Assembly (NCBI GenBank): GCA_965221695.1
Contig: OZ244905.1
Coordinates: 2,432,001-2,496,000, forward strand
Reading direction: 5' to 3'
Source: Gammaproteobacteria bacterium
GTDB lineage: Bacteria > Pseudomonadota > Gammaproteobacteria > Eutrophobiales > Eutrophobiaceae
Length of the DNA stretch: 64,000 nucleotides
The stretch's first letter is position 1. Every line of letters starts with the position of its first letter. Made by a program: the position numbers and the translations under genes. A model generated the notes under the pieces. The model worked only from the letters and a program-made list of their open reading frames with translations, searched no databases and was not told the DNA's origin. Below, in pieces: positions 24,208 through 64,000 of the stretch.

Positions 24208-24879
24208 ATGCTGATGTCCTACGAAGTCATCAAGTTTATCCATGTGCTGCTGCTGGTTTTCTGGCTGGGAACCGATGTGGGCGTCTTGCTGCTGGCCCGG
24301 AAGTTCCGCGATGCAAACCTGTCCGTGGAGACGCGCCTGGCGCTGCTGCACATGGCCATGGTTATCGATACCCTCCCGCGCATCTGTTTTATCGTGATGC
24401 TGCCCGCGGGTGTGCACCTGGCCAATGCCGCCGGGTTGCTCAATGTCGAACCGGTCGGCATGGTTGGCCTGTGGCTGCTTGCCGCGCTGTTGCTTTCGGT
24501 TAACATGTCTGCGGCGAAACATATCGGTACGCCCCTGGGCGCCAGGCTGCAACGCCTGAACTGGCTCGGACTGGGTCTTTCCGGACTGCTGCTGATCGCT
24601 ACCGGGTTGGCCTCGATGATCACGGGGACCCCGTACATGGTTTCCTGGCTCGCGGCCAAGATCGTCATTTACGGCCTGGTCTACTGGTTTGCGATTGGCA
24701 TAGACTGGATGTTCGTGCCGGTTGGCCGGCTGACTGCTGAACTGGCGGAAAAAGGCTCTTCAGAAGAAGTCGAAGCGGGCATCACCCGTACCGTGGACCA
24801 GACCATGTGGGCCGTGCTTGCGGTCTATGCGGCAACCCTCGCTGCAGCCTATATTTGCATAACGAAGTTTGAATTTTAA
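24208..24879 (+). CDS. Hypothetical integral membrane protein
   Basis: 223 aa, ~6 hydrophobic segments, N-terminal IKFIHVLLLVFWLG. Confidence 0.8.
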   Translation: MLMSYEVIKFIHVLLLVFWLGTDVGVLLLARKFRDANLSVETRLALLHMAMVIDTLPRICFIVMLPAGVHLANAAGLLNVEPVGMVGLWLLAALLLSVNMSAAKHIGTPLGARLQRLNWLGLGLSGLLLIATGLASMITGTPYMVSWLAAKIVIYGLVYWFAIGIDWMFVPVGRLTAELAEKGSSEEVEAGITRTVDQTMWAVLAVYAATLAAAYICITKFEF

Positions 24880-24894
24880 GCATACAGTTGTTTT

Positions 24895-24920
24895 CCTGGG
24901 AGCGCGGGCGTCTCGCCCGC
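24895..24920. repeat. REP-like hairpin family C (CCTGGGAGCGCGGGCGTCTCGCCCGC)
   Basis: Between convergent genes; inverted copy at ~35929-35954. Confidence 0.65.
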
Positions 24921-24944
24921 GTATGGGCGCCTGCCCTGTGAAAT

Positions 24945-25427
24945 TTAAAACCTGGCGTCGGGCGTGGCCTGGTCGATATCGAGGTACAGCTTCCACTCAT
25001 TGTCCGGGTTTCGTTTGTAGATGAGTAGCGAGCGACCGGCATCCCGGTAAGTATCTCCGCCCGATATCGGTTCGCTTGTCAGGTAATATTTGCTCAGCAG
25101 GTGCGCGGTGTCGCCGTGAATCTGTATCTCCTCTATATCTATTTCGAACGTCACCCTGGACTTGCCCATACCAGGCGCAAAAAAGTTGCGAATCTGTTCC
25201 ACGCCGCGCAATGCCGGTCTGCCGTGCAGCGCGACGATTGCGTCCTGCGTGTACAAGGTCATCAAGCCGTCCAGGTCGCCTGCCGCATATAATTCGATCC
25301 AGCGTTGGGCGACCTGTTCTATCGCGGCAATGTCGCTCGCGTCATCTGCTGCCGCTTGGTTGCACAACATCAGGCCCAGCAAGATAAACCACGCGGGTTT
25401 TGCAAAGCTGTAATATAAGAATTTCAT
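24945..25427 (-). CDS. Exported NTF2-like/SnoaL (YybH/DUF4440-type) protein
   Basis: Signal peptide; AGDLDGLMTLYTQDA...GVEQIR...KRNPDNEWKL. Confidence 0.82.
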   Translation of the reverse strand: MKFLYYSFAKPAWFILLGLMLCNQAAADDASDIAAIEQVAQRWIELYAAGDLDGLMTLYTQDAIVALHGRPALRGVEQIRNFFAPGMGKSRVTFEIDIEEIQIHGDTAHLLSKYYLTSEPISGGDTYRDAGRSLLIYKRNPDNEWKLYLDIDQATPDARF

Positions 25428-25501
25428 TAAATCGTACCTCTCGTGTGTCGTTGAATGCCGTTATAGGATGGTTGGCGATGAGTTTTGCCATGCGTCTGAG
25501 T

Positions 25502-25517
25502 TAATGTTATAACATTA
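25502..25517. promoter_or_regulatory. Perfect 16-bp palindrome TAATGTTATAACATTA, putative regulon operator
   Basis: Between divergent genes; the core TGWTATAWCA recurs upstream of other operons in the window. Confidence 0.7.
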
Positions 25518-25585
25518 GATCATTCGATAACAGGTCATCGACGTGATAGATTTTCATCCTTGCCTTCAACCGGGAGTACCTATTC

Positions 25586-26581
25586 ATGAAGCGCCACTAC
25601 AAACTTGGTATTTTGCTGTTTGCCTCGGCCATGTTGGTCGGAGCATCTGATGTTTCGCCGGCCACTGATCAATGGCAACCGCTGCAAATCACAGATGTCG
25701 GCAGCCACCCATGGGATACCAGTCCCCGCTTCAGATCAAAGACGAAAACCTTTTTCAAGGGGCCCGATGACAGCAGCTTGATCTATGCGCACTTCTCGCC
25801 GCGCTGGGATATGACACCTCCCGCCGACCCCTTGGGGCCGCACTATCATCACTGGCATGAATGGGCTTATGTGCTCGATGGCGACTTTGTCATCCATGAG
25901 CCGGTCAGCGCGCAACAGAAATCCGGGATGCTGTCACATTTTACCCAAGGTACCTGGCTGGACCGTCCTGCTTACTCCTTGCACGGCGGTGGCTGGGAAG
26001 TCGGCGGGATGCGCGCGCAGAATGCCTGCACCCTGCTGATCTTTGAGGAAGGTGACGGTAGTGTTGTCACCGTGGGGCCAAACGGCGATCATTTCAAACC
26101 GGATTTCCCCGACACACCGGATCCATACTTGCCGGATTGGCAGGCAGTACAACAATTCACGCATCCATGGATTGTGCACACGACGACTGACCTGGAGTGG
26201 GAAACAGATACCAAGGTACCGGGGCGCTTGTTGAAGTGGTTGAGCGATGATCAGAAGGAAGGTTTCCGCGCCCGCCTGGTAAAAATCCCCCCGGGTTGGC
26301 AGGCCCCGAAACAACACAAGGCCAGTTATTATAAACAGGCCAGCCGCTTTATCTACATGATCTATGGCGACCTCAGCATTGCGCAACGGGACAATCTCGC
26401 CGCTTCGGGCATGCCGGTACAACTGTCCAAGGACTTCTTTGTTTACCAGCTCCCCTACAGCCTGTTCGGTTTTGCTGACGGGCCTGTCACGACCAGCGGC
26501 GCGATCTGGCTGGAAGTCGTGTATGCCAAGGGGCTCGCTGTAGGCGGTGGTAGGATCGAAATCCCCTCGCACCCTGAATGA
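25586..26581 (+). CDS. Exported bicupin, DUF4437/ChrR-like
   Basis: Signal peptide; cupin metal motif HYHHWHEWAYVLDG and G-x-W-LDRPAYSLHG. Confidence 0.7.
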   Translation: MKRHYKLGILLFASAMLVGASDVSPATDQWQPLQITDVGSHPWDTSPRFRSKTKTFFKGPDDSSLIYAHFSPRWDMTPPADPLGPHYHHWHEWAYVLDGDFVIHEPVSAQQKSGMLSHFTQGTWLDRPAYSLHGGGWEVGGMRAQNACTLLIFEEGDGSVVTVGPNGDHFKPDFPDTPDPYLPDWQAVQQFTHPWIVHTTTDLEWETDTKVPGRLLKWLSDDQKEGFRARLVKIPPGWQAPKQHKASYYKQASRFIYMIYGDLSIAQRDNLAASGMPVQLSKDFFVYQLPYSLFGFADGPVTTSGAIWLEVVYAKGLAVGGGRIEIPSHPE

Positions 26582-26656
26582 AACCTGTTGCCTGCTCACA
26601 ACACTTATTCGTTTAGACAACAAAACAGTTACAATGTCACGGAAGAATTGATATAT

Positions 26657-26666
26657 TGATATAACA
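26657..26666. promoter_or_regulatory. Operator copy TGATATAACA
   Basis: About 90 bp upstream of the TonB receptor. Confidence 0.62.
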
Positions 26667-26758
26667 TTCAGTGTGATAATGGTAAATCAACCCTCTGAAG
26701 AGATTGGTGCAGTAGGGTTCAGGGGTTCAATAATAAAAAAGCTTTCGGGAGACCTGTT

Positions 26759-29005
26759 GTGAATTTCAGATCCAACTCTATTAACAATATTCTGCTCTCC
26801 GGCGTTGTCCTTGCGATTGTTTTTTCGCCACAGTCCTGGTCCCAGGGCATTGAGGAGGTCGTGGTTACTGCGACCCGGCGCGCGGAGAATGTCCAGAGTA
26901 TTCCTGTTGCCGTTTCAGCATTCACCGATGACGATGTGGCCCGCCTGGGGATCACTGAAACCATGGATGTTTCCCAGGTGGTGCCAAACTTCCTTGCCCA
27001 TAACAACACCGGGCTGGGAACCGCCAACACCTATTCGTTGCGCGGTCTGAACAATACCGAATCGATCGCCACGTTCGACCCGCCGGTAGGCACCTACGTG
27101 GATGATTTCTTCATCCAGCGCCAGAATGCGAACAACTATGCGTTGTTCGATATCGACCGGATAGAGGTATTGAGAGGTCCCCAGGGCACGTTGTTCGGCC
27201 GGAACACGACCGGCGGCGCGGTGCGCGTCATTCTGGATGAGCCGGCTGAAGAGTTCGGCGGCTATGCTGAAATAGGCGGCGGGCGTTTCGATAAGATTTC
27301 CGCAAGAGGCAGCGTGGATATTCCTGCAGCGGAAACGTTACGCATGAAGATTTCCGGTTATTACATCAATGACGATGGATTTGTCGATAATCTGACGACC
27401 GGACAAAAAGGCCTCAATCATGAAGACAACTTCGGCATACGGGGCGCGCTGTTATGGGAACCCACGGATACTGCTTCATGGAATGTCGCGTTGGCTTATA
27501 TTGATAATGAACATGCGAACATGTATAACTATGTCGATGGCGGTGATCGGTACACCCGGACCGGACTGGTCACTGACGGGACGCCCTATGCAGGCCTGCT
27601 GACCGGCGACAAGCAGAACTTTGGCTTGGGCAATGATACCCGATCCTTGCATTTCACTTCCGATATCGAATGGGAAACCGCCATTGGCACCGTTAATATC
27701 CTTACCAGCTACCTGACTTTGGAACAGGACTTTCTGCTGGATTTCTATGAGGGCCCGTTTACCACTGGCGGTTTTGTCATCGCCAATGAAGGCGAACACG
27801 ACCAATTCTCACAGGAGGCGAAACTGACCGGGTCCTTCGGCGACAAGCTGGATTACATTGCCGGTGTCTTCTATTTCAACGAGGATAACAAGACCGACAT
27901 GGCGCAGATATTCAACCTGGGCATGGTCGGACTGTTCCTGCCCACCGGGTTCCCGTTAATCCAGTACGACCGAACCATGGATAATAGTGTGGATTCATGG
28001 GCGGTCTACGGTCAGTTTGACCTGCGTGTGACCGAGCAGTTGACGCTAACGGCCGGTGTGCGCTACACCGATGAAGAGAAGGACTTCGGCATTACCGACA
28101 ACGGCAACCCGCGGGCCGGAAATGTTTTTGGCAGCAGGGATATAGAAGCCTTGGGCATTCTGTTGAAGCAGGATGAGTCCATGGTCACTCCGCGCTTTGC
28201 CATCGAATTTGAAGCCACTGACGACTTCATGGTTTACGCTTCTGCTACCCGCGGCTTCAAGTCCGGCGGTTGGAATGCCAGGGGCACGGCCGCGGCGACA
28301 CTAACACCGTTTTCTGCGGAGAAGATCTGGAATTACGAAGGCGGAATACGCTCAGAGTGGCTCGATAAAAAAGTGCGGGTGAACCTGACAGGATTTTACT
28401 CCGATATAACCGATTTCCAATTGCCGTCGGCTTATGTCAACCCGGTGGATGGTTCCATTGCCTTCATCACCCAGAACTTTGCTGACCTGGAGGTCTATGG
28501 TTTCGAGGCGGAACTGCTTGCCAATCCGGTGGATAACCTGACGCTGTTTGCCAATATAGGCATCATGGAATCGGACTATAAAAACCTGGATCCATCGATT
28601 ATCACGCAGCAGGGAATCTGTCTGACCACCGGTGAACAATGCGCGCAAAGCATCGTCAATCCGTACGGCAATATTGCGCCGCCGGTGCGGTCGCCGGAGC
28701 ACCAGTTATCGATAGGCGGCTGGTATGAGATACCGATCACCGATGACATAAACATCGTCCCGCAGATCAACGTCATTGATTACGGCGAGCACAATATCAG
28801 CACCAGCGGCCAGGACAGTGCGCTGATAAACGGTTATACCATCATCAACGGCGGTGTCAGCATCGAGCATAAGACGCAGGGCTGGTCTCTGACCGCATCC
28901 TGCCAGAACTGCACCGATAAGAATCAGTACGTCTCTTATCTTGCCGGATTGGTTTATCTGCAGGACCCGGCAACCTGGTCGGTGACCTTGAACAAGCGGT
29001 TTTAA
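26759..29005 (+). CDS. TonB-dependent receptor
   Basis: IEEVVVTATRR, IEVLRGPQGTLFGRNTTGG, C-terminal Phe. Confidence 0.95.
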   Translation: MNFRSNSINNILLSGVVLAIVFSPQSWSQGIEEVVVTATRRAENVQSIPVAVSAFTDDDVARLGITETMDVSQVVPNFLAHNNTGLGTANTYSLRGLNNTESIATFDPPVGTYVDDFFIQRQNANNYALFDIDRIEVLRGPQGTLFGRNTTGGAVRVILDEPAEEFGGYAEIGGGRFDKISARGSVDIPAAETLRMKISGYYINDDGFVDNLTTGQKGLNHEDNFGIRGALLWEPTDTASWNVALAYIDNEHANMYNYVDGGDRYTRTGLVTDGTPYAGLLTGDKQNFGLGNDTRSLHFTSDIEWETAIGTVNILTSYLTLEQDFLLDFYEGPFTTGGFVIANEGEHDQFSQEAKLTGSFGDKLDYIAGVFYFNEDNKTDMAQIFNLGMVGLFLPTGFPLIQYDRTMDNSVDSWAVYGQFDLRVTEQLTLTAGVRYTDEEKDFGITDNGNPRAGNVFGSRDIEALGILLKQDESMVTPRFAIEFEATDDFMVYASATRGFKSGGWNARGTAAATLTPFSAEKIWNYEGGIRSEWLDKKVRVNLTGFYSDITDFQLPSAYVNPVDGSIAFITQNFADLEVYGFEAELLANPVDNLTLFANIGIMESDYKNLDPSIITQQGICLTTGEQCAQSIVNPYGNIAPPVRSPEHQLSIGGWYEIPITDDINIVPQINVIDYGEHNISTSGQDSALINGYTIINGGVSIEHKTQGWSLTASCQNCTDKNQYVSYLAGLVYLQDPATWSVTLNKRF

Positions 29006-29010
29006 CCTTA

Positions 29011-29037: not shown

Positions 29038-29082
29038 CTTACTATTTTGTGTAAGTTTTAGTAACTGAACAGCGCCCCATAC

Positions 29083-29195
29083 CATTCCCGCGCAAGCGGG
29101 AGTGGTATTCTGGCAATGTTTACGCAGCGCCCCCCTATCCCATTCCCGTGGAAACGGGAATCCAGTGAAAAAACGGGTCGGCCCCGGGCGACACA
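29083..29195. repeat. dRS3-like REP hairpins (family D)
   Basis: CATTCCCGCGCAAGCGGGAGTG and CATTCCCGTGGAAACGGGAATCCAG plus a GTCG..GGGCGAC mini-hairpin. Confidence 0.75.
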
Positions 29196-29199: not shown

Positions 29200-30375
29200 T
29201 CATTGTTCATAGCGAAAAACCAACGCCAGGTAGGACAGCGCCGAGAAACAAATAAACACTGCCACAGGCAAACACAAACTCAATACATTACCGTTATAGA
29301 TCAGTGAAGCCAGGACGGCCGCGATCGCACCCAGGGCCATGGACATACTGTTGGAGATCCCTGATGCAGTGCCGGCCTTATCCGGGTGATGCGCAACCGC
29401 CCCGGCCATGGATGGTGGGTTGACCAGTCCTGTGGAAGCGAACAGGAACAGAAAGGGTATCAGGATGGTTAAAACGCCGACCGGTAAATGCCAGGTCGCA
29501 AGCAGAATCAGCCCGGCGCTGAAAAATGTGCCGCACAGTCCCAGTTGCAATGAGCGTTCGGCGCCGCGCCGGCGGATAACCACGCTGCCAATCAACGATC
29601 CGCAGATATAGGCTAAAGCCATGCTGCCCATGTAAACACCGAACAGGGTCGGCCCCGTGAACAAGCGCTCTTCAAAATACAGCGGCGCGCTGGTCAGGAA
29701 AGTAAAAAAAGCAGCGTTGCCGAACCCGAATACCAGGGTGTAGCCCCAGAATAACCTGGACTTAATCAGACTGCTGAGGTCGGCGCGGATTTTTCTGACA
29801 GCACGGTCTGCTTTTGCCTGTTGCCGACCGGTCTCCGGCAACATTGATATCAACAGCATCAGCACTACCACGGCAAGGCCGGTCATCGCATGAAAACTCA
29901 TGCGCCAACCCCAGGTTTCTATCAGGTAACCGGACAAGGCCGGCGCCAGCATGGTTGCCACGCCCATGCCCCCGGCCAGGTAAGCGGTGTAATGCGCGCT
30001 GGCATCGATACTGAAGCTATCCCGAAACATTGCGCGCGTAACAACTGTGGCCGTGGCTATGCCGGCAGCCTGGACAAGCCGGAATACGATGAACCAGAAC
30101 ATCGTACCGCTCACCGCACAGGCCAGGGTCGCCAGAGTAAATACGGCAAACCCCCACAGCAACACCGGCCGTCTTCCGTACCGGTCACTCAACATGCCGT
30201 GCACAGGTTGCGCCAGGGCCAGCCCCAACAGGTAGATGGAAATCGTGAACTGCACCGTCGATATGGGCAGTCCGAACTCATTTCCGATTGCCGGCAGCGC
30301 CGGCACACACGCGGTCATCGCTAACGGAGAGAACGAACTGGCAATGATCAGGAGAGATATCGGCGGTTTGGACAT
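29200..30375 (-). CDS. Bcr/CflA family MFS transporter
   Basis: PALPAIG, GMLSDRYGRRPVLL, FRLVQAAG, GWR motif. Confidence 0.88.
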   Translation of the reverse strand: MSKPPISLLIIASSFSPLAMTACVPALPAIGNEFGLPISTVQFTISIYLLGLALAQPVHGMLSDRYGRRPVLLWGFAVFTLATLACAVSGTMFWFIVFRLVQAAGIATATVVTRAMFRDSFSIDASAHYTAYLAGGMGVATMLAPALSGYLIETWGWRMSFHAMTGLAVVVLMLLISMLPETGRQQAKADRAVRKIRADLSSLIKSRLFWGYTLVFGFGNAAFFTFLTSAPLYFEERLFTGPTLFGVYMGSMALAYICGSLIGSVVIRRRGAERSLQLGLCGTFFSAGLILLATWHLPVGVLTILIPFLFLFASTGLVNPPSMAGAVAHHPDKAGTASGISNSMSMALGAIAAVLASLIYNGNVLSLCLPVAVFICFSALSYLALVFRYEQ

Positions 30376-30383
30376 GTTAAAAC

Positions 30384-30439
30384 GGTCGCCCTCCAGGCGA
30401 CACAGTATTCGATTGGACTCCCGCTTCCGCGGGAGTGGT
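30384..30439. repeat. REP family D copy
   Basis: GTCGCCCTCCAGGCGAC...TGGACTCCCGCTTCCGCGGGAGTGG. Confidence 0.72.
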
Positions 30440-30560
30440 TCGGAAAAATACCCTGATCATGAGAGTTTAGAATGACAGAGAGAGCCTGTCAGCACAACAT
30501 AATGTCATCCAGGACCCGGGATCAAACCATGGGCGGCTTATCCCGCGCAGTTATCCTGAG

Positions 30561-31442
30561 TTATTTTTGCGCGTCGATATATTTCTTGAAATAAGTCCAA
30601 CTGGTCTCGTTCGTACGGGCGTCGTCGCCAGGAGGCGGGCTCGTGTACTCAGGGTAGTTGGCGTTGATTTCATCCTTCATTAATGCCGGCAAGTCGTCCC
30701 AGCTTTTCAGCTTGCTGCCTACCGCGTTGAAATACATCAATCCAGAGCGTCCTCCCATTTTCATCCACGGTAACCAGGGAGCGATGCGTACCCACGCCAC
30801 GTTGATAGCGGCGGTGTTCTTCGACAGGTCGGCGATATCGTTTATGTTGCCGTTAAAGTCAAAGATTTCTGTCGCATGATAACTGTTGCCGACATAGGGC
30901 TGGTAATCCCCTCCCAGCACATTGGTATAAAACAAGGGCACTTCAAACGCCATGAAAGCAACATCATCAATGACCAGGGGTTCAAACCGGCGTTCCTTGC
31001 CATCCCTGCCCACTGGGAATTGTGGCCGTTGATTGACCGGATCGTTGGCCACGTGCAGGACCTCGACCTTTTCCCCGGTCCAGGGATTGTCCCACTCGCG
31101 CAAGATCTCACCGGTTTTCGGGTCGAGGTACAGCATGATTTCCCGCGATACCAAGCGGTAGCCTTCGCCTTTTTCGGCATCGGTAACGGTAACACATTGC
31201 CTGACATTCATACCCAGCACGTCAAACAACATTTTGTCCCGTTCTCCCGGGACCCTGGCATAGCCTCTGCCCTGCCACATATAGGTGACGGGATCGTTAT
31301 CTTTCAGCGAGCAATGGATTTTGCGCTGCGCCTGGATGTAACCCTTGCCGGTGGCAAAGTCGATTTGCGCCACCGCGCTGTTCGCAGCAAGCAGGGAAAC
31401 GCAGAAGCAAACTTGCGCAACCAGTCCAGTTGAATTCTTCAT
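30561..31442 (-). CDS. Exported DUF1838 family protein
   Basis: VPGE..LF..GMNV, VSREIMLYLDPKTGE, WDNPWTGEKVEVLHVANDPVN, WLPWMKMG; start MKNST at 31442 with SD GAGGG; signal peptide. Confidence 0.8.
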   Translation of the reverse strand: MKNSTGLVAQVCFCVSLLAANSAVAQIDFATGKGYIQAQRKIHCSLKDNDPVTYMWQGRGYARVPGERDKMLFDVLGMNVRQCVTVTDAEKGEGYRLVSREIMLYLDPKTGEILREWDNPWTGEKVEVLHVANDPVNQRPQFPVGRDGKERRFEPLVIDDVAFMAFEVPLFYTNVLGGDYQPYVGNSYHATEIFDFNGNINDIADLSKNTAAINVAWVRIAPWLPWMKMGGRSGLMYFNAVGSKLKSWDDLPALMKDEINANYPEYTSPPPGDDARTNETSWTYFKKYIDAQK

Positions 31443-31529
31443 TTTAAAACCCTCATGATCAGGTTTCTGCACACCCCAATTGTATGTTACTGTTGGCACA
31501 GGTCAGTTAGTAAAAAATCAGTCTTGTTA

Positions 31530-57246: not shown

Positions 57247-58281
57247 TTGACCTGCTACTACGCGCTGGCCTTACAGACCCGCTGTCGCGCCGTCAATGCC
57301 CTGGATGTCACCGAGGCGCGGCGTGCGATCCATGCCGCCATACAGACCTGCGCGCGCCAGATTGCGGCCAGCAAGGGATTCATCGGCGCCGATACCCGCC
57401 TGGTTGTTCTGCCTGAATACTTCCTGACCGGCTTCCCCATGGGTGATTCCGTGCCGGCCTGGGGCGAAAAAGCGGGCATAGAAATGGAAGGCGCTGAGTA
57501 TGAGGCATTGGGACGGATTTGCCAGGATAACGATATTTTTCTTTCGGGCAATGCTTATGAGTTGGACCCGGCGTTTCCCGGCCTTTATTTTCAGACTTGT
57601 TTCATCCTGGCCCCAAGCGGCGATGTAATCCATCGCTACCGGCGCCTGATTTCCCTGTTTGCGCCGACACCCCATGATGTCTGGGATCGTTACCTGGACC
57701 ATTATGGGATAGAAGGCGTATTTCCGGTGGCAGATACCGAACTGGGGCGTTTGGCGACTGTTGCTTCGGAAGAGATTCTGTACCCGGAAATTGCCCGTGC
57801 GCTGGCGCTGCGCGGCGCCGAGGCTATATTGCATTCAAGCAGTGAAGTGGGCAGCCCGGAACTCACGCCTAAGGACGTGAGCAAACGTGCCCGGGCCATC
57901 GAAAACCAGGTCTATGTCATCTCGGCCAATAGCGCCGGCATCAGCGGTATAGGGATACCGGAATCCTCAACGGACGGCATGTCAAAAATCATCAATGATC
58001 ATGGCCATGTGCTTGCCGTGGCCGGCCCGGGAGAGAGTATGGTTGCGAACCATGAAATCGACATCGCGTCCCTGCGCCGCCGCCGCCGCCGTCCCGGAAT
58101 GGCCAACCTGCTTGCGCGCCAGCGCCTGGAACTGTACGCCCATATCGCTTATCCGCAAACCCGCTACCCGGCCAATACCCTCCTGGATACCGCAGGCAAT
58201 ACAGTCACGCCAGACCGAGGGCACTTCATCGGCACGCAACGCGCCGTGATAGAGGACTTAATCAAACAAAACCTGATTTGA
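57247..58281 (+). CDS. Nitrilase-superfamily C-N hydrolase with non-canonical catalytic residues
   Basis: LVVLPEY, YRR, ASEEILYPEIARALALRGAE, RARAIENQVYVISAN. Confidence 0.88.
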   Translation: MTCYYALALQTRCRAVNALDVTEARRAIHAAIQTCARQIAASKGFIGADTRLVVLPEYFLTGFPMGDSVPAWGEKAGIEMEGAEYEALGRICQDNDIFLSGNAYELDPAFPGLYFQTCFILAPSGDVIHRYRRLISLFAPTPHDVWDRYLDHYGIEGVFPVADTELGRLATVASEEILYPEIARALALRGAEAILHSSSEVGSPELTPKDVSKRARAIENQVYVISANSAGISGIGIPESSTDGMSKIINDHGHVLAVAGPGESMVANHEIDIASLRRRRRRPGMANLLARQRLELYAHIAYPQTRYPANTLLDTAGNTVTPDRGHFIGTQRAVIEDLIKQNLI

Positions 58282-58821: not shown

Positions 58822-60270
58822 TTATCCCTCTAGCCTGGCCAGTAGCGCGGTCTTGTCCAGTTTGCCTGATGCTTTTTTGGGCAAGTGATCCAGAAACACG
58901 TAACGGGTCGGAACCTTATACGGCGCCAGGTGTTGGCGGCAGTGTGCGTCCAGCGCCTCTATTGAGATGGCCTCGTCTGCTACGATGAACGCGGCAACGG
59001 TTTCCCCGAATTTCTCTGATGGTTCACCCACGACAGCAGCTTCCCTGATTGCGGGCATTTGCATCAGAACGGCCTCTATCTCAGCCGGATATATGTTCAC
59101 GGCGCCACGGTTGATGACATCCTTGTCGCGTCCGCGTAGCACGATATGTCCACTGTCCAGGCGGGCAGCCAGGTCCCCGGGGTAGAACCAGCCGTCGGCC
59201 GCGGCGGGATGTTCCTGTCCGTCTGCGTCGATAAAACGCATAGCGACACCGGGTCCGCGATAGCGCAAGCGGCCGGTTTCTCCCGGTTTTGCCGGTTTGT
59301 CCTCGCGGTCCACGATCTGAACTTCGGTTCTGAAGGTGGCCCGACCTGCGGTGTGCGCGTAGTCATTGAACTCGTCGGTATTCAACACGGAAATGCCACC
59401 GCCTTCGCTGGACGCATAATAGCCTATCAGTCCGGGGTTCACTTTTTCGCGTATCGCCTCTGCCTCGCCGGGGTACAGGGCGGCGCCGCTTATCAGCAAC
59501 TTATCCAATCGTGGGAACAATAACTGGTCCTTGTGCAGCGGCAGCAACCCGCGCAGTTGAGTCGGCGCCATGAATGTGACACTCGCGCGAGACCCATTTA
59601 CGGTCGAGACCAGTTGTTCGGGCGTATGCGGGGGCGGATCGAGAATGACCGTAGCGCCGGCGGCAAGAAAGCCCATCGCAAATGAACGTCCGGCGCCGAA
59701 GTACAGTGGCGTCAACCCCAGAAACCGATCTTGAGAGTTGAAACCGATAGTGACCCACTGGCTAATAAATCGCTGATACATCTGCTCATGGGTAACTTGC
59801 GCGCCCTTGGGCCTGCCGGTGGTCCCGGATGATAAGGATATGAGCAAAGGCAGGTCGGGATGATCCGGGATAGACGGCAGACGGGAGACATCGCCTGCTT
59901 GCAGGTCGCTGCTGATCCTGAGTGTGTCGATATGCGCCGGCGCGTCGCCATCTTCCTCCAGTATCAGCAGTTTTGCGTTGAATGCCGTCACGGTTCCGGC
60001 TTTTTCGGTCAGAGTCCAACGATGGTCGACCGGCAAGATCACTGCGCCGAGCCGGGCCAGAACATAGTGCAGGATCAAGTGGCAGGGGTGTTCTTTCAGA
60101 GCAAGGCCGACCCGGTCTCCCGATCTGATGCCGTGTGCGTGCAGGCAAGCCGCATAGTCTTCCAGGTATTGCCACAATTCGAGATAACTGATTCGTTCTG
60201 CGCGAAATTCAATGGCCGTCTTGTCGCCATAGCTGTCCGCGTGGCAGCGAAGGATGGAAGCCAGGTTCAT
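58822..60270 (-). CDS. AMP-dependent acyl-CoA synthetase/ligase
   Basis: SSGTTGRPKG, YASSE, GD, GRDKD, LPKKASGK. Confidence 0.92.
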   Translation of the reverse strand: MNLASILRCHADSYGDKTAIEFRAERISYLELWQYLEDYAACLHAHGIRSGDRVGLALKEHPCHLILHYVLARLGAVILPVDHRWTLTEKAGTVTAFNAKLLILEEDGDAPAHIDTLRISSDLQAGDVSRLPSIPDHPDLPLLISLSSGTTGRPKGAQVTHEQMYQRFISQWVTIGFNSQDRFLGLTPLYFGAGRSFAMGFLAAGATVILDPPPHTPEQLVSTVNGSRASVTFMAPTQLRGLLPLHKDQLLFPRLDKLLISGAALYPGEAEAIREKVNPGLIGYYASSEGGGISVLNTDEFNDYAHTAGRATFRTEVQIVDREDKPAKPGETGRLRYRGPGVAMRFIDADGQEHPAAADGWFYPGDLAARLDSGHIVLRGRDKDVINRGAVNIYPAEIEAVLMQMPAIREAAVVGEPSEKFGETVAAFIVADEAISIEALDAHCRQHLAPYKVPTRYVFLDHLPKKASGKLDKTALLARLEG

Positions 60271-60286: not shown

Positions 60287-61150
60287 TCAGTCGAGGCGGT
60301 AGACGCGGCGCGCATTGTCCCGAAGGAACTTTCGCATTGCCTCCGGTTTCAACCCAAGACCCTCGATCTCCTGCCGGGTGCGTTTGAAATTGAGCACCGG
60401 AAAATCCGTTCCAAAGATTACCTTGTCCTGGCCGTAGCTGTTCAGGTAGTTAACGAAGCTCGGCGGCCAGTATTTCGGGCTGTGCGCGTCACCGCCGATG
60501 TACACGTTTTCGTGCTTCCACGCCATGGCGATCATCTCATCCGCCCAGGGAATGCCCACGTGAATGCCGACCAGCCTCAGCTCAGGGAAATCACAGGCCA
60601 CCGGGTCCAGCTTGATGGGCTGTCCCACGCTTTTGCAGCGAAACTCCTTTGAGTAGATCATGGACTGTCCGACCTGGATCTGTATCGGTATATCCAACTC
60701 GCAACATTTTGCATAAAACGGATAGTATTTCGCATGGTCCGGCGCCAGATCAAACCAGTGCGGGTAAAGGTGCGCGCCGATAAAACCCATATTTCGTACT
60801 GCGTTGTCCAATTCCCTGAGTCCGGCCATGCCCATGAACGGGTCGATGCCCAGCAGCCCGGAGAAGTGATCAGGATATTTGTTCACGGCTGCGGCCACGA
60901 TATCCGGCGGCAGGTGATAACATCCGGGCAAGCCGGGCCGTCCGGCTTTGGCGGCGATCAGGAACCCATGTTCGATGCCGGCCTCCTGCATCAGGTCTAT
61001 CATCTGTTCCAGCGACAGCCCCCGCATCAGACTTTGCTCGGCTCTCATCTTGCCGGCGAAGAATTCATCTCGCCAACCCGGGCGGTGCGATAACGCTTCC
61101 TCCGTCCAGATATTGACGACGGCATCAATGGCTTTGATGTTGTTTGACAT
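60287..61150 (-). CDS. Amidohydrolase_2 family protein
   Basis: YYPFYAKCCELDIP, DFPELRLVGIHVGIPW, KVIFGTDFP; N-terminal IDAVVN instead of HxH. Confidence 0.88.
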   Translation of the reverse strand: MSNNIKAIDAVVNIWTEEALSHRPGWRDEFFAGKMRAEQSLMRGLSLEQMIDLMQEAGIEHGFLIAAKAGRPGLPGCYHLPPDIVAAAVNKYPDHFSGLLGIDPFMGMAGLRELDNAVRNMGFIGAHLYPHWFDLAPDHAKYYPFYAKCCELDIPIQIQVGQSMIYSKEFRCKSVGQPIKLDPVACDFPELRLVGIHVGIPWADEMIAMAWKHENVYIGGDAHSPKYWPPSFVNYLNSYGQDKVIFGTDFPVLNFKRTRQEIEGLGLKPEAMRKFLRDNARRVYRLD

Positions 61151-61222: not shown

Positions 61223-62269
61223 TCACAACGATGCCGACTTGGATGCGGACTGGAACTCAGCTTTTCCCTGTTGCACCAGAGCATAAATCTGCCTGGCCTG
61301 TCCACCCGTCTCTTCAAGCAATCTCGGGTGGGTGGGCAACGCCCGCTCCCGCCATTGCGCTTGTTGTTCCGCATCCAACTCGTGCACGGTCACGGCCATT
61401 GCCGGCAGAGATATTTGGAAATAATTATCCAGCGCCGCGCGGATCAATGTCCGATTCACCTCGGCGCTTTCGATGCTGTCGAAAACAAGCCGCCGGAGTC
61501 GTTCGGGCAACCCGTCATACCAGTCCTTGTTGGCCAGGATGGGACCCATGTCAAACGCGTGCCGGGTGAGCATCAGGTGCGGCGCCGGCCTGGCAATCCC
61601 TGCGAGTGTATACATGCCCACGCCGGTCTGGCCGCTTTCGATCAGGTTGGTCTGCAACGCGGGGATCACCTCGGCAAAACTCAGGGGAATGAGGTCGGCG
61701 CCGATAGCCTCGGCGAAGTAGCGCGAACCCAGGGCGTTTGAGGATCTCATGGAAATGCCACGGGTTGCCGCCGGCGTCAACAGCGGTTTCTTGCCGTAGA
61801 TATAGAACCAGCCCACTTCCGACCATTGGATCAGTGTCAGTCCTTTTTCCGCAAACAGTTTTGCATACGCATCGGACAGGTAATGGTCCATCACGAACGC
61901 GGCTTCCTCGCGGGAATCAAACAGGTAGGGCGCCAACAGCACGTTCAGTTCCGGGATCAGTGTTGCGACCCCCTGTAACGCAAAACCACCGATCTGTATC
62001 CGGCCCCGGCGCAGGTTCGCGAGCGCCGTCTCTTCACTGCCCAACTCCCCGGAAATAAACAGGTCCAGGTCGATCTCCCCGGCGCTGTCGTTCTGTTCCA
62101 GTGTCGCCGCAAAGCGCAGCCAGAAATCATGCCAAGGCGTATCCGGTATGCCGAGCGAGGTGACCCGCACCTTCAGTTGCTTGTCCCCGCGCTCTGCGCA
62201 GCCGCCGATCTGGGTAATCATGACTGCCAGCAACAGAATTATCAGGCTGGCCCGTTGAAGTAATGGCAT
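61223..62269 (-). CDS. dctP: TRAP transporter substrate-binding protein
   Basis: GELGSE, PYLFDSRE, EVIPALQT; neighbours are dctQ/dctM. Confidence 0.85.
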   Translation of the reverse strand: MPLLQRASLIILLLAVMITQIGGCAERGDKQLKVRVTSLGIPDTPWHDFWLRFAATLEQNDSAGEIDLDLFISGELGSEETALANLRRGRIQIGGFALQGVATLIPELNVLLAPYLFDSREEAAFVMDHYLSDAYAKLFAEKGLTLIQWSEVGWFYIYGKKPLLTPAATRGISMRSSNALGSRYFAEAIGADLIPLSFAEVIPALQTNLIESGQTGVGMYTLAGIARPAPHLMLTRHAFDMGPILANKDWYDGLPERLRRLVFDSIESAEVNRTLIRAALDNYFQISLPAMAVTVHELDAEQQAQWRERALPTHPRLLEETGGQARQIYALVQQGKAEFQSASKSASL

Positions 62270-62298
62270 TCCGGTTATTGATGACAGTTAAATGTTTA

Positions 62299-62449
62299 GG
62301 AAACTCTGAACAAGTCCATCCTGGACTTGTCAGAGTACGGAAAACAAAAATGCGATTTTTGTTTTCCTCACAATATCAATGCCTTACAGTCATTGATATT
62401 GACGATACATCCTTGTATCGTAGGAACCTCTGACTTAATCAGAGGTTCC
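62299..62449. mobile_element. 151-bp MITE family A (inverted relative to the 20681 copy)
   Basis: GGAAACTCTGA...TCAGAGGTTCC flanked by TTTA on both sides. Confidence 0.85.
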
Positions 62450-62455
62450 TTTATT

Positions 62456-62465
62456 TGTTATATCA
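62456..62465. promoter_or_regulatory. Operator copy TGTTATATCA
   Basis: Between divergent dctP and dctQM. Confidence 0.6.
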
Positions 62466-62565
62466 TTAATAGAACTCGGTATAAACCTCCAAACCCTCAT
62501 GATCAGGGCGCTGCTCACCCCGTCGGCATGTAGCTATTGGCATAAACCAAGACATGCCTCCGTAC

Positions 62566-62655
62566 CACTCCCGTGCAAACGGGAGTCCAGTAGGACAGGG
62601 TGTCGCCCGCAGGGCGACTCTTCAGTCTATTGGATACCCGTTTGCACGGGAATGG
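62566..62655. repeat. Complete REP family D doublet
   Basis: CACTCCCGTGCAAACGGGAGTCCAG-GTCGCCCGCAGGGCGAC-TGGATACCCGTTTGCACGGGAATGG. Confidence 0.8.
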
Positions 62656-62690
62656 TACCGAGCACAGGTTATACAGGATAAATTACACAT

Positions 62691-63206
62691 ATGGCAGAAC
62701 GGTTTTTGCAACTCCTGGGGCGCATGGAGCGCATCGTCACCAGCGCCGCGTTTACGCTGCTGATTGCAGCTATTTTCCTTGACGTGTTCAGCCGGGAGCT
62801 CACCGGCGTGGGCTTGCACTGGGCGCGCCAGGCCGGGGTTTATGCGAACATTATCGTAGTAATGTTTGGTCTGGGCCTGGCCTCGGCAGGCGGCAACCAC
62901 CTGCGGCCGCGATTTGCCGATAATTGGCTGCCGGCGCGCTGGGCCCCCGTGATCATGCGCTTGCAGGATAGTTTGATGAGTGCGTTTTGCCTGTTCGCAG
63001 CCGGCGCCGGCGCGCAACTGACCTGGGAGTCTATGCAACTGGGCGAGCGCTCGACACTGCTCCCGATCCTCATCTGGCCGGTCCTGATGGCGCTCCCGCT
63101 GGCTTTTTTTCTGGTAGGCGTTCGCCATGCTGTTTATGCTGCTTATCCCGAGCTGGCGCCGCAGGATCCGTTGCGTATCGCCCCTGAGTCCTCATCCAAT
63201 GACTGA
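62691..63206 (+). CDS. dctQ: TRAP transporter small permease
   Basis: 4 TM segments, VFSRE, GNHLR; overlaps the dctM start. Confidence 0.85.
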   Translation: MAERFLQLLGRMERIVTSAAFTLLIAAIFLDVFSRELTGVGLHWARQAGVYANIIVVMFGLGLASAGGNHLRPRFADNWLPARWAPVIMRLQDSLMSAFCLFAAGAGAQLTWESMQLGERSTLLPILIWPVLMALPLAFFLVGVRHAVYAAYPELAPQDPLRIAPESSSND

Positions 63207-64000
63207 GACCCTGCTCCTGATCGTACTGCTCACGGCCCTCATTCTGCTGCGCCAGAATCTCGTGGTGGCGCTGGGCGTGGCCGCGTTCTATGTTTACTGG
63301 GTATTTGGCGATGAACCGTTGCGTTATGTGATACTGGATGCCTGGCACGCGCTGAACAAGGACATCCTGCTTTCCATCCCGCTGTTTCTTCTCGCTGGCC
63401 AGATCATGACGCGCGGTTCGATGGCAGAGCGGCTGGTGCGCCTGGTCAAAGCCGCCAGCGCGCCAATTCCGGGCGGTCTTGCCGTCGCCACAGTACTGTC
63501 CTGTGCGTTGTTTGCCGCGATTTCCGGCTCTTCCACAGTTACGCTGCTGGCGGTGGGCGGTATCATGTACCCGGCATTGCTGAAAGCGGGCTATTCCAAA
63601 GCTTTTTCGTTGGGCGCGCTGTGCGCTGCCGGCACGCTTGGGATCATTGTGCCGCCCAGCATTCCGCTGATCCTGTACGGCGTGATGACCCATACTTCCA
63701 TTACCGACCTGTTTATTGCCGGAATCCTGCCGGCGCTGGTCCTGACCGCATTGATGAGCGTTTATGCGCTCTGGTTCAACCGTAACATCCCTGCCGGCAA
63801 GCTGGACCTGCGTGAGTTATGGGAGGCATTGCAACAGGGTGTCTGGTCCTTGTTCATGCCCATCCTGATCCTGGGTGGGATCTACAGCGGCCATTTCACC
63901 GCGACTGAATCCGCCGCCGTGGCCGTGGTATACGCGTTTGTAGTGGAATTGTTCATTCATCGCGAACTGAAACCGGCAAGCGTTCATCTTGTGATCGAAG
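63199..64000 (+). CDS. dctM: TRAP transporter large permease (runs off the window)
   Basis: Not in the ORF track. Manual translation from ATG 63199 gives LLSIPLFLLAG, FAAISGSS, GTLGIIVPPSIPLILYG, FTATESAA. Confidence 0.93.
   Translation, partial: MTETLLLIVLLTALILLRQNLVVALGVAAFYVYWVFGDEPLRYVILDAWHALNKDILLSIPLFLLAGQIMTRGSMAERLVRLVKAASAPIPGGLAVATVLSCALFAAISGSSTVTLLAVGGIMYPALLKAGYSKAFSLGALCAAGTLGIIVPPSIPLILYGVMTHTSITDLFIAGILPALVLTALMSVYALWFNRNIPAGKLDLRELWEALQQGVWSLFMPILILGGIYSGHFTATESAAVAVVYAFVVELFIHRELKPASVHLVIE

Follow-up and report, generated by a model that had tools for sequence, protein, structure and literature searches.

A candidate catabolic regulon in a marine gammaproteobacterium that may serve the breakdown of pyrrole-type pigments

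Do the transporters and enzymes crowded into this stretch of a marine bacterium's genome form one system, and what would that system consume? We analyzed a window of 64,000 nucleotides, in which the region of interest begins at 24208 and continues past the window end for 15 kb or more. The initial annotation proposed one coherent, undescribed uptake-and-degradation system, with bilins or other tetrapyrroles as the suggested substrate. Pfam and NCBIfam searches verified nearly every gene on its list, and a literature search found no description of the system. Judging from sequence, we put the probability that this import and breakdown gene set is one coherent catabolic regulon at about 85%. The regulon may be an undescribed route for eating pyrrole-type pigments, hypothetical as that substrate still is.

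The coherence of the system is well supported, on the basis of synteny across phyla, genome-level co-occurrence, and a shared, positionally conserved operator, and the original proposal is upheld in this respect. We fetched 80 loci from Gammaproteobacteria, Bacteroidota, and Acidobacteriota, each with a CpcT-like gene, and searched them with the window proteins using tblastn. The same families recur beside an exported CpcT-like gene across these loci and all three phyla, in shuffled order. Co-occurrence was assessed in 126 genomes from the source organism's taxonomic order. A nitrilase-like gene was present in 13 of the 14 holders of a CpcT-like/C-domain gene versus 4 of the 112 non-holders, and 9 of 11 genomes with the 376-aa VOC protein (VOC376) were also among the holders.

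The operator is a 14-bp palindrome of the AATGTTATAACATT type, present in five promoter gaps of the window. Searching for AATGWTATAWCATT with at most two mismatches gave these five sites, all intergenic, against 0.45 expected by chance, and 0 of 100 shuffles reached five, which bears out the claim that several operons share one palindrome. Site 1 (25503-25516) is a perfect AATGTTATAACATT in a divergent promoter gap, site 2 (26655-26668) lies upstream of a TonB receptor, site 3 (34220-34233) upstream of a receptor operon, site 4 (41128-41141) in the divergent gap between the CurA-like reductase and FAD oxidase genes, and site 5 (62454-62467) in the DctP/DctQ gap. Four relatives (L001, L002, L090, and L091) keep equivalent positions, that of site 4 in all of them and that of site 3 in L090, L091, and L001. 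The 80 loci hold 11 sites with at most one mismatch beside cluster genes, including a gap between GntR and nitrilase-like genes. A HutC-type GntR gene ~11 kb past the window end, with an orthologue in L084 (7089-7856), probably encodes the repressor that controls the regulon. GC-rich hairpin repeats, which occur in many gaps, were rejected as operators, being generic REP-like elements with 357 and 210 copies genome-wide.

Could the region instead be a set of unrelated catabolic operons, side by side in an island rich in TonB receptors, with the palindrome belonging to a global regulator? The window and its surroundings do hold other, unrelated catabolic clusters, including leucine/isovalerate, methylamine dehydrogenase, and hydantoinase/acetone-carboxylase-like clusters and a Mo-hydroxylase locus. 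A low-GC insertion with HigBA and an FGE-sulfatase-like gene (46.8-51.7 kb) interrupts the region; congeners lack it, and it is unrelated to the system except for its YCII-family gene (47710-48054, plus strand; Pfam; 12/80 loci), a member of the conserved set. The acyl-CoA ligase and TRAP genes at the far end do not share the conservation of the rest in the 80 loci, and the palindrome occurs 31 times genome-wide at up to two mismatches. However, three of the five genomic sites with at most one mismatch fall in this region, at positions kept in relatives. With the recurrence across phyla in shuffled order and the genome-level co-occurrence, this makes such a chance assembly very improbable.

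We then considered uptake. The two TonB receptors, two MFS transporters, and TRAP system named initially were all matched by Pfam or NCBIfam, and six proteins carry a signal peptide or Tat motif. The first receptor (26759-29005, plus; 748 aa; plug and barrel by Pfam) is 83% identical to, and likewise adjacent in, the congener locus L091. The second (31624-34212, minus; Pfam; 15/80 loci) is listed at 862 aa, likely starts ~57 nt downstream of the listed position, and has homologues beside the CpcT-like gene in loci such as L028, L043, and L059. Receptor homologues occur in 15-16 of the 80 loci by tblastn. One MFS transporter is of the Bcr/CflA type (29200-30375, minus; TIGR00710, 229.7 bits versus a cut-off of 200.9), and the other (37193-38539, minus; 448 aa; Pfam, NCBIfam) shares 8 nt with the CpcT-like gene. 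The TRAP genes encode the solute-binding DctP (61223-62269, minus; Pfam, NCBIfam; 0/80 loci) and DctQ plus DctM (62691-64000, plus; Pfam), with DctM continuing past the window; DctP is tied to the set through operator site 5 alone.

Several further proteins are exported. The DUF1838 protein (30561-31499, minus; Pfam 258 bits; 16/80 loci) likely starts at Met20, which a signal peptide follows. An NTF2-like (SnoaL/DUF4440) protein (24945-25427, minus; Pfam) has a signal peptide and no homologue in the 80 loci at the thresholds used. Also with a signal peptide is a 331-aa protein (25586-26581, plus) with homologues of 35-36% identity in L001, L002, and L091; counted initially as one of two bicupins, it is only weakly cupin-like (Cupin_2 E 8.7e-4, below cut-off), while the DUF4437/Cupin_7 bicupin described below is confirmed. 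Similarly, one of three proposed VOC proteins stands, the exported 376-aa VOC-superfamily protein (36016-37146, minus; PF00903 E 3.1e-5), with 53-57% identity in Bacteroidota loci and no PDB sequence match; the other two are weaker candidates.

The Tat-exported flavoprotein (34417-35907, minus; PF01593, 172 bits; TRRKLL motif; 16/80 loci) is one of two flavin oxidases correctly recognized at the outset. The protein is MAO/LAAO-like and not protoporphyrinogen-oxidase-like, which points to an amine. Among PDB entries it is closest to MAO-A (E 2.8e-25), with weaker matches to nicotine and 6-hydroxynicotine oxidases. The same regulon could act on another nitrogen compound, such as a hydrophobic amine or an N-heterocycle of alkaloid type built on a pyrrolidine, hydantoin, or other cyclic-amide ring. 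Periplasmic MAO-type oxidation, as by nicotine oxidoreductase, would come first, and oxidation of the aldehyde, hydrolysis of the ring amide, and a branched dicarboxylate route would complete the breakdown. In L013 and L019 the MAO-like gene is immediately followed by a cytochrome c gene, an arrangement that resembles the NicA2-CycN pair. However, the MAO-like gene is found in only 14-16 of the 80 loci and is therefore accessory, and small polar amines would need neither TonB receptors nor three barrel-type binding proteins. We consider this substrate class unlikely, though not negligible.

The protein at the center of the set, a relative of a cyanobacterial enzyme that attaches pigments, is an exported, two-domain member of the CpeT/CpcT family (38532-39515, minus; signal peptide; Pfam 110 bits versus a cut-off of 21). 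A CpcT/CpeT-fold barrel (residues ~30-212) precedes an 8-stranded barrel at the C-terminus (~213-327). Profile comparison of the CpcT-like domain with 4o4o gave E 3.8e-15, and the predicted model (pLDDT 91.9) has a Foldseek TM score of 0.79 to CpcT. PDB matches of this domain are bilin lyases only, the relatives of the fold being CpcT, phage CpeT, and CRL; bilins are the only known CpcT-fold ligands, which speaks against an amine. Of the 14 genomes of the order that have a match, however, nine keep the syntenic cluster but encode the C-terminal barrel only, so the bilin-lyase-like barrel can be dispensed with, a point in favor of the amine or alkaloid. As noted initially, no phycobiliprotein or photosynthesis gene is in the window (0/56 scanned ORFs), and profiles PF00502, PF01126, and PF05996 found no match in the whole genome. 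Since this genome makes no bilins or phycobiliproteins, any such ligand would be of external origin.

The remaining proteins are mostly predicted cytoplasmic enzymes. The proposed ene-reductase is a CurA-like MDR enzyme, an NADPH alkenal/one (C=C) reductase (40013-41008, minus; 42/80 loci), though at 378.6 bits it falls under the NF058644 cut-off of 440. Across the divergent gap lies the second flavin oxidase, a VAO/GlcD-type FAD-linked enzyme (41158-42765, plus; PF01565, FAD_binding_4; PDB matches; 10/80). The two "double alpha/beta-fold" proteins are tandem alpha/beta hydrolases of 550 aa (43021-44673, plus; Pfam, NCBIfam; 9/80) and 562 aa (51796-53484, minus; Pfam; 5/80) with 28% mutual identity. 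The DUF3598 call is borderline (44812-45315, plus; DUF3598_N, 22.9 bits versus 22; 11/80). A 96-aa protein of no known family (45406-45696, plus; 10/80) is always encoded 5' of the bicupin (45717-46697, plus; Pfam; 15/80, median identity 73%). The weaker VOC candidates are a 306-aa protein (53468-54388, minus; Glyoxalase_6 E 1.2e-3; VOC neighbor E 6.6e-5) and a 162-aa cytoplasmic protein (39500-39988, minus; 14/80) with no Pfam, NCBIfam, or PDB match. The ALDH, amidohydrolase, and acyl-CoA ligase were likewise found, as an NAD(P) aldehyde dehydrogenase (54382-55818, minus; PF00171, 354 bits; 35/80), an Amidohydro_2 enzyme of ACMSD/LigW type (60287-61150, minus; Pfam; ~72% identity in 6/80 loci, where it adjoins the 96-aa ORF and bicupin), and an AMP-forming ligase of doubtful membership (58822-60270, minus; Pfam; only 2/80, ~26% identity). 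A 237-aa protein of no known family (56230-56943, plus; 8/80, 52-61% identity) and a weakly DUF2269-like integral membrane protein (24208-24879, plus; Pfam E 4.3e-4, below cut-off; 4/80 by tblastn, in an ORF cluster spanning 7 loci) complete the set. Finally, a DUF1330 protein (56956-57243, plus; Pfam; 10/80) is paired with the nitrilase-superfamily protein (57247-58281, plus; 27/80 by tblastn). Alignment to Nit3/Nit2 confirms the reported Glu-Arg-Ser in place of Glu-Lys-Cys, with Glu kept, and this triad is retained in all 21 clear orthologues among those 27 loci. Lacking the Cys nucleophile, the protein may not be an amidase.

As the most constant partners, the CurA-like reductase and ALDH fit alkenal or apocarotenal chemistry, and VAO-type oxidases, cupins, VOC, Amidohydro_2 (LigW/ACMSD type), and meta-cleavage-type hydrolases are characteristic of pathways that degrade aromatics. 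The regulon might therefore serve a nitrogen-free, hydrophobic conjugated carbonyl (apocarotenoids, methyl-branched isoprenoid polyenes, or curcumin/phenylpropanoid-type aromatics), with the barrel proteins as lipid carriers and the "amidohydrolase-like" proteins as esterases, lactonases, or decarboxylases. Polyene chains could also yield methyl-branched C5 diacids, an ABA4-like gene is present in L010, and a further operator site in the genome adjoins a VanA-like Rieske oxygenase and a TonB receptor. However, carotenoid-cleavage oxygenase and beta-ketoadipate-type genes were not found among cluster representatives and 199 residual ORFs, and the MAO-type oxidase, RidA, amidase-like isochorismatase-type enzyme, and allantoinase/PuuE-like and hydantoinase genes would be left unexplained. 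We regard a nitrogen-free substrate of this kind as doubtful; the substrate probably contains nitrogen.

Past the window end, this genome encodes a CoA-transferase, a LeuCD-like hydratase, an allantoinase-like enzyme, and hydantoinase A/B as well as the GntR regulator. Unbiased clustering of ORFs in the 80 loci gave CoA-transferase III in 40, LeuC-like in 37, PuuE-like in 28, HMG-CoA-lyase-like in 24, HapK-like in 18, HpcH/RipC-like and isochorismatase-type in 13 each, and MaoC/RipB-like in 11. The commonest partners elsewhere thus resemble an alkyl-maleate/citramalyl-CoA-type lower pathway (LeuCD/homoaconitase-, HMG-CoA-lyase-, and RipB/RipC-like enzymes with CoA-transferases), though the RipB/RipC-like neighbors score below NCBIfam cut-offs. 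Other common partners appear to be cyclic-amide openers (PuuE-like, maleamate-amidase-like, and hydantoinase). The PuuE-like neighbor is closest to allantoinase. For the isochorismatase-type neighbor, the closest proteins are N-carbamoylsarcosine amidase, an enzyme type of creatinine breakdown, and the maleamate amidases 4l07 and 3uao. With hydantoinase A/B, RidA/YjgF, and sarcosine-oxidase subunits among the neighbor ORFs, these genes also suit the amine or alkaloid.

Our tentatively preferred substrate class, at somewhat less than even odds, is pyrrole-type pigment material, meaning either linear tetrapyrroles (for example phycobilins, biliverdin, or chlorophyll-derived phyllobilins) or their maleimide/formyl-pyrrole fragments. 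Oxidative tetrapyrrole cleavage yields methyl-alkyl maleimides and formyl-pyrroles, whose hydrolysis gives alkyl-maleates; the tri-acid of hematinic acid, a methyl-homoaconitate, is an example. Such alkyl-maleates would be substrates of LeuCD/homoaconitase-type enzymes. The alkyl-maleate lower pathway and cyclic-amide openers therefore fit pyrrole-ring (maleimide) units and lend the bilin idea indirect support, as does the CpcT fold. Against it, none of 199 residual ORFs lying up to 6 kb from CpcT-like genes encodes a heme oxygenase, HemS/HutX, HugZ, biliverdin reductase, FDBR, or RCC reductase, so that the neighborhood links suggested initially were negative. The flavoprotein is of MAO type, the CpcT barrel is missing in the nine congeners, and some members of the PuuE-like and hydantoinase-type families are esterases or carboxylases, for which nitrogen is not required.

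From the observed gene content, export signals, synteny, and operator, we infer a route in which all chemical steps are conditional. The regulon would import and degrade a compound from outside the cell that dissolves poorly and probably contains nitrogen. This compound would cross the outer membrane via the two TonB-dependent receptors and be held or pre-processed in the periplasm by the CpcT-fold, DUF1838, VOC, NTF2-like, and cupin-like proteins and the MAO-type flavoprotein. Products would enter the cell via the MFS (and TRAP) transporters, where the CurA-like reductase would saturate conjugated C=C bonds, ALDH would oxidize aldehydes, and the FAD oxidase, bicupin, VOC-like proteins, and tandem hydrolases would open or cut rings. 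The Glu-Arg-Ser nitrilase-like protein with DUF1330, allantoinase-like, and hydantoinase-type enzymes may then open cyclic amides. The LeuCD/homoaconitase-like enzyme would add water to the resulting alkyl-substituted maleates, and family-III CoA-transferases would then activate them for cleavage by lyases. A paralogue of the 306-aa VOC-like protein lies just past the window end.

The source genome is a single contig of 3.54 Mb from a marine-type gammaproteobacterium, and an ORF listing together with Pfam and NCBIfam searches bore out the gene list of the initial annotation almost item by item. Judging by their N-termini, the SnoaL-like protein, a cupin-like protein of 331 aa, DUF1838, the MAO-type flavoprotein, a 376-aa VOC protein, and the CpcT-like protein are predicted to be exported, the flavoprotein bearing a twin-arginine TRRKLL motif. 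The CurA-like reductase, FAD oxidase, tandem hydrolases, DUF3598_N, bicupin, ALDH, DUF1330, and nitrilase-like protein are predicted to be cytoplasmic. The DUF1838 protein matches PF08894 at 258.1 bits (Pfam gathering score 25), and its matches in the ESM Atlas were DUF1838 clusters only. Neither the 376-aa VOC protein nor a 162-aa ORF had a PDB sequence match, and the bicupin returned one kind of match only, an uncharacterised protein. The CurA-like reductase scores 378.6 bits against the curcumin reductase CurA equivalog NF058644, below its cut-off of 440, and belongs to the wider alkenal/one-reductase MDR group (PF16884 plus PF00107). A low-GC insertion (46820-51700; GC 0.47-0.50) lies within the cluster and carries a HigB/HigA-type toxin-antitoxin, an exported FGE-sulfatase/PvdO-like protein, several ORFs without a known family, and stacked REP-like copies. 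It is absent from congeners, in which the bicupin, YCII, and ALDH genes lie near each other.

CpcT-like loci occur 322 times in species-level genomes; we fetched 80 of them with 10-kb flanks and searched these by tblastn with 37 window proteins, requiring at least 50% coverage. The CurA-like reductase was found in 42 of the 80 loci, ALDH in 35, and the nitrilase-like protein in 27, followed by DUF1838 and the MAO-like flavoprotein (16 each), the TonB receptors (15-16), the bicupin (15), the 162-aa ORF (14), YCII (12), DUF3598_N (11), and DUF1330, a 96-aa ORF, and the FAD oxidase (10 each). The 376-aa VOC protein and the tandem hydrolase were each present in nine, a 237-aa ORF in eight, and a 448-aa MFS transporter and Amidohydro_2 in six. 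Gene order is shuffled among the loci, which come from Halieaceae-like bacteria, Pseudohongiella, Alteromonadaceae, Lysobacterales, Flavobacteriaceae, Saprospiraceae, Chitinophagales, Cytophagales, and Pyrinomonadaceae. Within the order of the source organism (126 genomes), the CpcT-like or C-domain gene occurs in 14 genomes, the nitrilase-like gene in 17, and the 376-aa VOC gene in 11. The nitrilase-like gene is present in 13 of the 14 CpcT-like/C-domain holders vs 4 of the 112 others, a descriptive comparison only, as kin are not independent. The initial annotation had taken the region for one coherent system whose families should co-occur across genomes. They do, and the shuffled-order recurrence and the co-occurrence within the order strengthen and extend this claim. 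Some genes had counts of zero or near zero in the 80 loci: the SNF transporter, SnoaL, HigB, the FGE-sulfatase-like protein, and the unknown ORFs of the insertion, along with DctP/Q (0), DctM (1), and the ligase (2). Set beside the recurrence of the others, a mere mosaic of operons is the reading that we rank last and regard as very improbable. Literature searches returned no description of the cluster, nor of CpcT-like proteins in heterotrophs. Passages of PMC10151467, whose subject is pre-PcyA and globins, do not mention CpcT.

The CpcT-like protein (38532-39515, minus strand) has two domains. Its N-terminal domain matches PF06206 at 110.4 bits over residues 36-210 (cut-off 21) and 4o4o in a profile search at an E value of 3.8e-15. 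An AF2 model of the protein (pLDDT 91.9) has the calyx-type beta-barrel fold, with a Foldseek TMt of 0.79 and an rmsd of 2.8 to 4o4o/4o4s, and bilin-lyase-family chains were the only matches at E<1e-3. Profile and model together mark the N-terminal domain as a true CpcT-family barrel; its solved relatives are all bilin-binding lyase-family proteins. It resembles the T-type lyases CpcT/CpeT (PF06206; 4O4O/4O4S, phage CpeT 5HI8, and plant CRL 6LIX) by Pfam, profile, and fold, and the motifs W..F.N..Q and YR.R and two Cys (PGC ... GC) align. However, unlike the cytoplasmic CpcT/CpeT, the window protein is exported (signal peptide or lipobox), has an additional C-terminal 8-stranded barrel, and is encoded in catabolic operons of heterotrophs without phycobiliprotein, haem oxygenase, or FDBR. 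Searches of the 96.85%-complete genome with PF00502, PF01126, and PF05996 gave no match, and positive controls were detected. Since the genome lacks these matches and the protein is exported, the CpcT-like protein is a member of the fold and family and not a phycobiliprotein lyase by role. A large protein collection held 112 relatives, with no phototrophs among those named.

The C-terminal barrel also occurs alone. In nine congeners of the same genus the cluster is fully syntenic at about 80% identity, and the CpcT-like slot holds an exported protein of 130-160 aa that consists of the C-terminal barrel only (9771-10253 in congener locus L090 and 9832-10335 in L091; window counterpart 38535-38879). 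We found no separate N-terminal domain in these nine genomes with this query. At E<=1e-3, a search of 1.84 billion representatives gave 433 clusters for the C-domain family. In most of them the domain follows an N-terminal domain of ~200 aa in a fusion protein; of the 150 best relatives, some 45 fall below 210 aa and are stand-alone forms or fragments. The family is small and distinct, and no Pfam model for it was encountered. The model predicts an 8-stranded barrel. Foldseek gave nothing at E<1e-3, and the best structural match had a Z score of 5.4 and an rmsd of 3.6 over 96 aligned residues. The best matches, weak at Z 4.0-5.4, are the barrels of TbpB, HpuA, and hemophilin-type haemophores, TonB-receptor partners that combine a ligand-binding domain with an 8-stranded barrel. 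The CpcT-like protein also recalls these partners in that its gene often adjoins a TonB receptor. Because Z scores this low do not distinguish kinship from chance, we treat this as resemblance only.

The nitrilase-like protein is a member of PF00795 (105.4 bits, cut-off 23.2) and departs from the Glu-Lys-Cys triad of nitrilases: Glu57 is kept, with Arg133 in place of Lys and Ser174 in place of Cys. All 21 orthologues from other genomes are alike, so the Glu-Arg-Ser nitrilase proposed previously is real. The MAO-type flavoprotein matches PF01593 at 172 bits over all profile positions (1-443 of 443), including the FAD-binding N-terminus. In the PDB its closest match is MAO-A (E 2.8e-25), with animal MAO-A/B and LAAO at 1e-25 to 1e-21 and NicA2 at about 1e-14. 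Its MAO fold and Tat motif are shared with Tat-exported amine oxidoreductases of the NicA2 type, although it is closer to animal MAO-A/B and LAAO than to NicA2. Nicotine oxidoreductase is paired with a cytochrome c gene, and likewise in two relatives' loci such a gene lies directly 3' of the MAO-like gene (L013 12227-12820; L019 15547-16011), unlike in the window, where none lies beside the flavoprotein gene. The arrangement in those two loci points to a periplasmic flavoprotein that works as a dehydrogenase, passing electrons to cytochrome c, and not as an oxidase.

We clustered the 1,348 ORFs of the 80 loci and scanned representatives, and the commonest neighbours proved to be absent from the window. 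These are a family-III CoA-transferase (40 of 80 loci), a LeuC-like large subunit (37; small subunit 23), a PuuE/allantoinase-like protein (28), an HMG-CoA-lyase-like protein (24), an SDR (23), a HapK/REDY-like protein (18), an HpcH lyase (13; RipC model, E 2e-63), an isochorismatase-type enzyme (13), a MaoC hydratase (11; RipB model, E 1e-70), an acyl-CoA dehydrogenase (11), a 400-aa methyltransferase (10), hydantoinase A/B (5), and a PrpD-like protein (4). The 16 kb past the window encode a paralogue of the window's 306-aa ORF, a CMD-family protein, the CoA-transferase, preceded by a further palindrome site, a LeuCD pair (a paralogue, given the other pair at 313 kb), an allantoinase-like amidohydrolase, a GntR protein, the methyltransferase, hydantoinase A/B, and an MFS transporter. 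Given these partner genes, the true system is larger than the 24208..64000 region first proposed.

The relatives' MaoC hydratase, HpcH lyase, family-III CoA-transferases, acyl-CoA dehydrogenase, LeuCD/HacAB-like pairs, and HMG-CoA-lyase-like enzyme together resemble itaconate/C5-dicarboxylate degradation (RipA/B/C = Ict/Ich/Ccl), citramalyl-CoA lyases, and enzymes of the LeuCD, homoaconitase, and dimethylmaleate-hydratase type. Scores of the relatives' proteins against the RipB and RipC models (NF038241 and NF038242) were 236.8 and 214.5, below the cut-offs of 340 and 375, respectively. The source genome has no close copy of either, the best matches being 30-32% identical and elsewhere in the genome. 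Unlike in itaconate systems, these modules sit within a far larger set that includes receptors and ring-opening enzymes, and the source genome has only a CoA-transferase and the LeuCD paralogue nearby. We infer that the lower modules are of the itaconate/citramalyl-CoA plus LeuCD/homoaconitase kind, for alkyl-substituted C4-C7 unsaturated diacids.

A second likeness is to the maleamate branch of nicotinate and nicotine degradation and to cyclic-amide pathways (PuuE; N-methylhydantoinase/N-carbamoylsarcosine amidase), to which neighbour families are closest. The isochorismatase-type neighbour is nearest to N-carbamoylsarcosine amidase (E 1.8e-29), then to 4l07 (E 1.7e-27) and 3ot4/3uao (E 1.1e-18), of which we take 4L07 and 3UAO to be maleamate amidases. 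For the PuuE-like neighbour, the nearest match is allantoinase. From sequence, the ring openers thus appear to resemble cyclic-amide enzymes, and the shared logic would be ring cleavage, amide hydrolysis, and release of an unsaturated diacid. These likenesses rest on low identities, and differ from the maleamate branch in that no NicX-type dioxygenase or NicC is found here and a maleate-isomerase-like gene occurs in one locus only (L013). Another N-heterocycle or an amine as the substrate, to which the MAO-type flavoprotein and these amidases would also be suited, ranks second among our readings and is fairly unlikely. A separate TonB-receptor cluster at 2.63 Mb (2624000-2643000), with a three-subunit molybdenum hydroxylase, an isochorismatase-type enzyme, FAD_binding_2, a PuuE-like protein, and an AMP-ligase, looks like another, separate N-heterocycle degradation locus.

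Taken together, the C=C reductase, ALDH, oxygenase-type cupin/VOC proteins, MAO-type oxidase, and RidA point to a conjugated, aldehyde-forming, N-containing molecule whose rings would end as alkyl-maleates. Cleavage of tetrapyrroles yields methyl-alkyl maleimides and formyl-pyrroles, and the tri-acid of haematinic acid is a methyl-homoaconitate; such products would fit the gene pattern. The CpcT-family barrel, as predicted, is a second, independent hint to bilins. We rank pyrrole-pigment material first as the substrate, with a rough probability of 0.4. In a genome without haem oxygenase, FDBR, or phycobiliprotein, a bilin ligand would need an outside source. The link to haem oxygenase, HugZ, HutX, or RCC reductase that had been suggested for these loci failed: among 199 residual ORFs (at least 100 aa and within 6 kb of CpcT-like genes; singletons and one representative per small cluster), none was of these types, nor HemS, biliverdin reductase, or FDBR. 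This counts against bilins, as do the kinship of the flavoprotein to MAO-A/B and L-amino-acid oxidases with a cytochrome c gene 3' in two loci, the nine congeners with the C-terminal barrel only, and the small C-domain family with its weak resemblance to TbpB/HpuA/hemophilin-type barrels. Several of the amidohydrolase-like families also act on nitrogen-free substrates, a further point against bilins; a nitrogen-free conjugated lipid or aromatic, set against a gene set that suits an N-containing molecule, is ranked third and is quite unlikely.

In its fullest form, the pyrrole-pigment reading would make this the first bacterial pathway for full mineralisation of linear tetrapyrroles (phycobilins, biliverdin, or chlorophyll-derived phyllobilins), which we put forward as rather doubtful. 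The exported CpcT-fold "bilin carrier" would capture the pigment, or free it from chromopeptides by reverse lyase action, and the C-terminal barrel would pass it to the TonB receptor. Periplasmic and cytoplasmic oxidoreductases would then cut the methine bridges, and unusual hydrolases, among them the nitrilase-like protein that lacks the Cys, would open the pyrrolinone/maleimide rings. LeuCD/homoaconitase-like hydratases and citramalyl-CoA-type lyases could carry the resulting alkyl-maleates into central metabolism. Chlorophylls, haems, and phycobilins turn over, in synthesis and breakdown, at very large scale; a bacterial route for mineralising their pyrrole rings is not known to us, and literature searches found none. 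Marine and soil heterotrophs carry the gene set in no fewer than 322 species-level genomes. Even if the substrate differs, the exported two-domain branch of the bilin-lyase family, the small C-terminal barrel domain with its 433 clusters, and the conserved Glu-Arg-Ser branch of the nitrilase superfamily are new.

Several of the operons share the AT-rich palindrome AATGTTATAACATT, as noted previously. It has five window sites (25503, 26655, 34220, 41128, and 62454) vs 0.45 expected at up to two mismatches, all five in promoter gaps, and none of 100 shuffles reached five sites. Genome-wide there are 31 such sites; three of the five with at most one mismatch are in this region. In L001, L002, and both congener loci the palindrome keeps its place at two promoters, in front of the receptor and between the CurA-like reductase and the FAD oxidase. 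Across the 80 loci, 11 sites have at most one mismatch, all in Gammaproteobacteria and adjoining cluster genes. A Pfam scan found no regulator gene inside the window. A GntR plus UTRA gene lies 11 kb beyond the window end (7089-7856 in segment L084), and its product is orthologous, at 43% identity, to the GntR protein of three loci (L033, L037, and L046) in which a palindrome site separates the GntR/UTRA gene from the nitrilase-like gene. This HutC-type GntR is likely, on sequence grounds, to be the repressor acting at AATGTTATAACATT. With one palindrome and one GntR the regulatory handle is clear, and several named, cultured carriers exist, among them Thalassotalea piscium, Paraglaciecola spp., Halioglobus maricola, and Exilibacterium tricleocarpae, so the substrate question is directly testable by growth, induction, and binding. 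The Crp-type regulator beside DUF1838 in some relatives' loci had no match in the source genome with that query. Across the window and the 16 kb beyond it no Rfam family reached its gathering score, and a known riboswitch, for example of the cobalamin type, is accordingly not involved.

A second, bipartite element consists of a 21-bp box (CCRAT..TGTAT..ACT.TTGG), a spacer of ~13 nt, and CTGATCATGAGGGTTT. It lies at 31447-31498, 44736-44800, and 62491-62542, also at 30453 and 51455, and at genome position 2501510, just 5' of start codons, namely those of DUF1838, DUF3598_N, and, beyond the window end, the allantoinase-like gene. The leader has 19 copies genome-wide (five in the window) and the box six (three in the window), and the element may be a promoter or activator site. 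At 1745000-1754500, a one-mismatch palindrome and a box copy lie by a CMD-like gene, a VanA-like Rieske oxygenase gene, and a TonB receptor gene; this locus may also belong to the regulon. GC-rich intergenic double hairpins (29066-29188, 30380-30443, 34318-34384, 42823-42934, 44646-44723, 51239-51356, and 62549-62660) were considered as the operator and rejected, as they are REP/MITE-like elements, with two patterns having 357 and 210 matches genome-wide.

Catabolic genes unrelated to the system lie in the upstream part of the window (809-20648). They comprise genes for the heavy and light chains of methylamine dehydrogenase, accompanied by a TonB receptor; the leucine genes for isovaleryl-CoA/methylcrotonyl-CoA carboxylase; and a hydantoinase/acetone-carboxylase-like pair accompanied by an MFS transporter. 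The same part also encodes a fusion of malic enzyme and PTA, and a DUF3226 plus AAA (AbiEii-like) pair of low GC. Two inverted repeat pairs, copies of intergenic repeat elements, flank most of the region (20699-20837 vs 62295-62433, 139 nt, 96%; 22670-22772 vs 51469-51571, 103 nt, 95%) and could mediate inversions.
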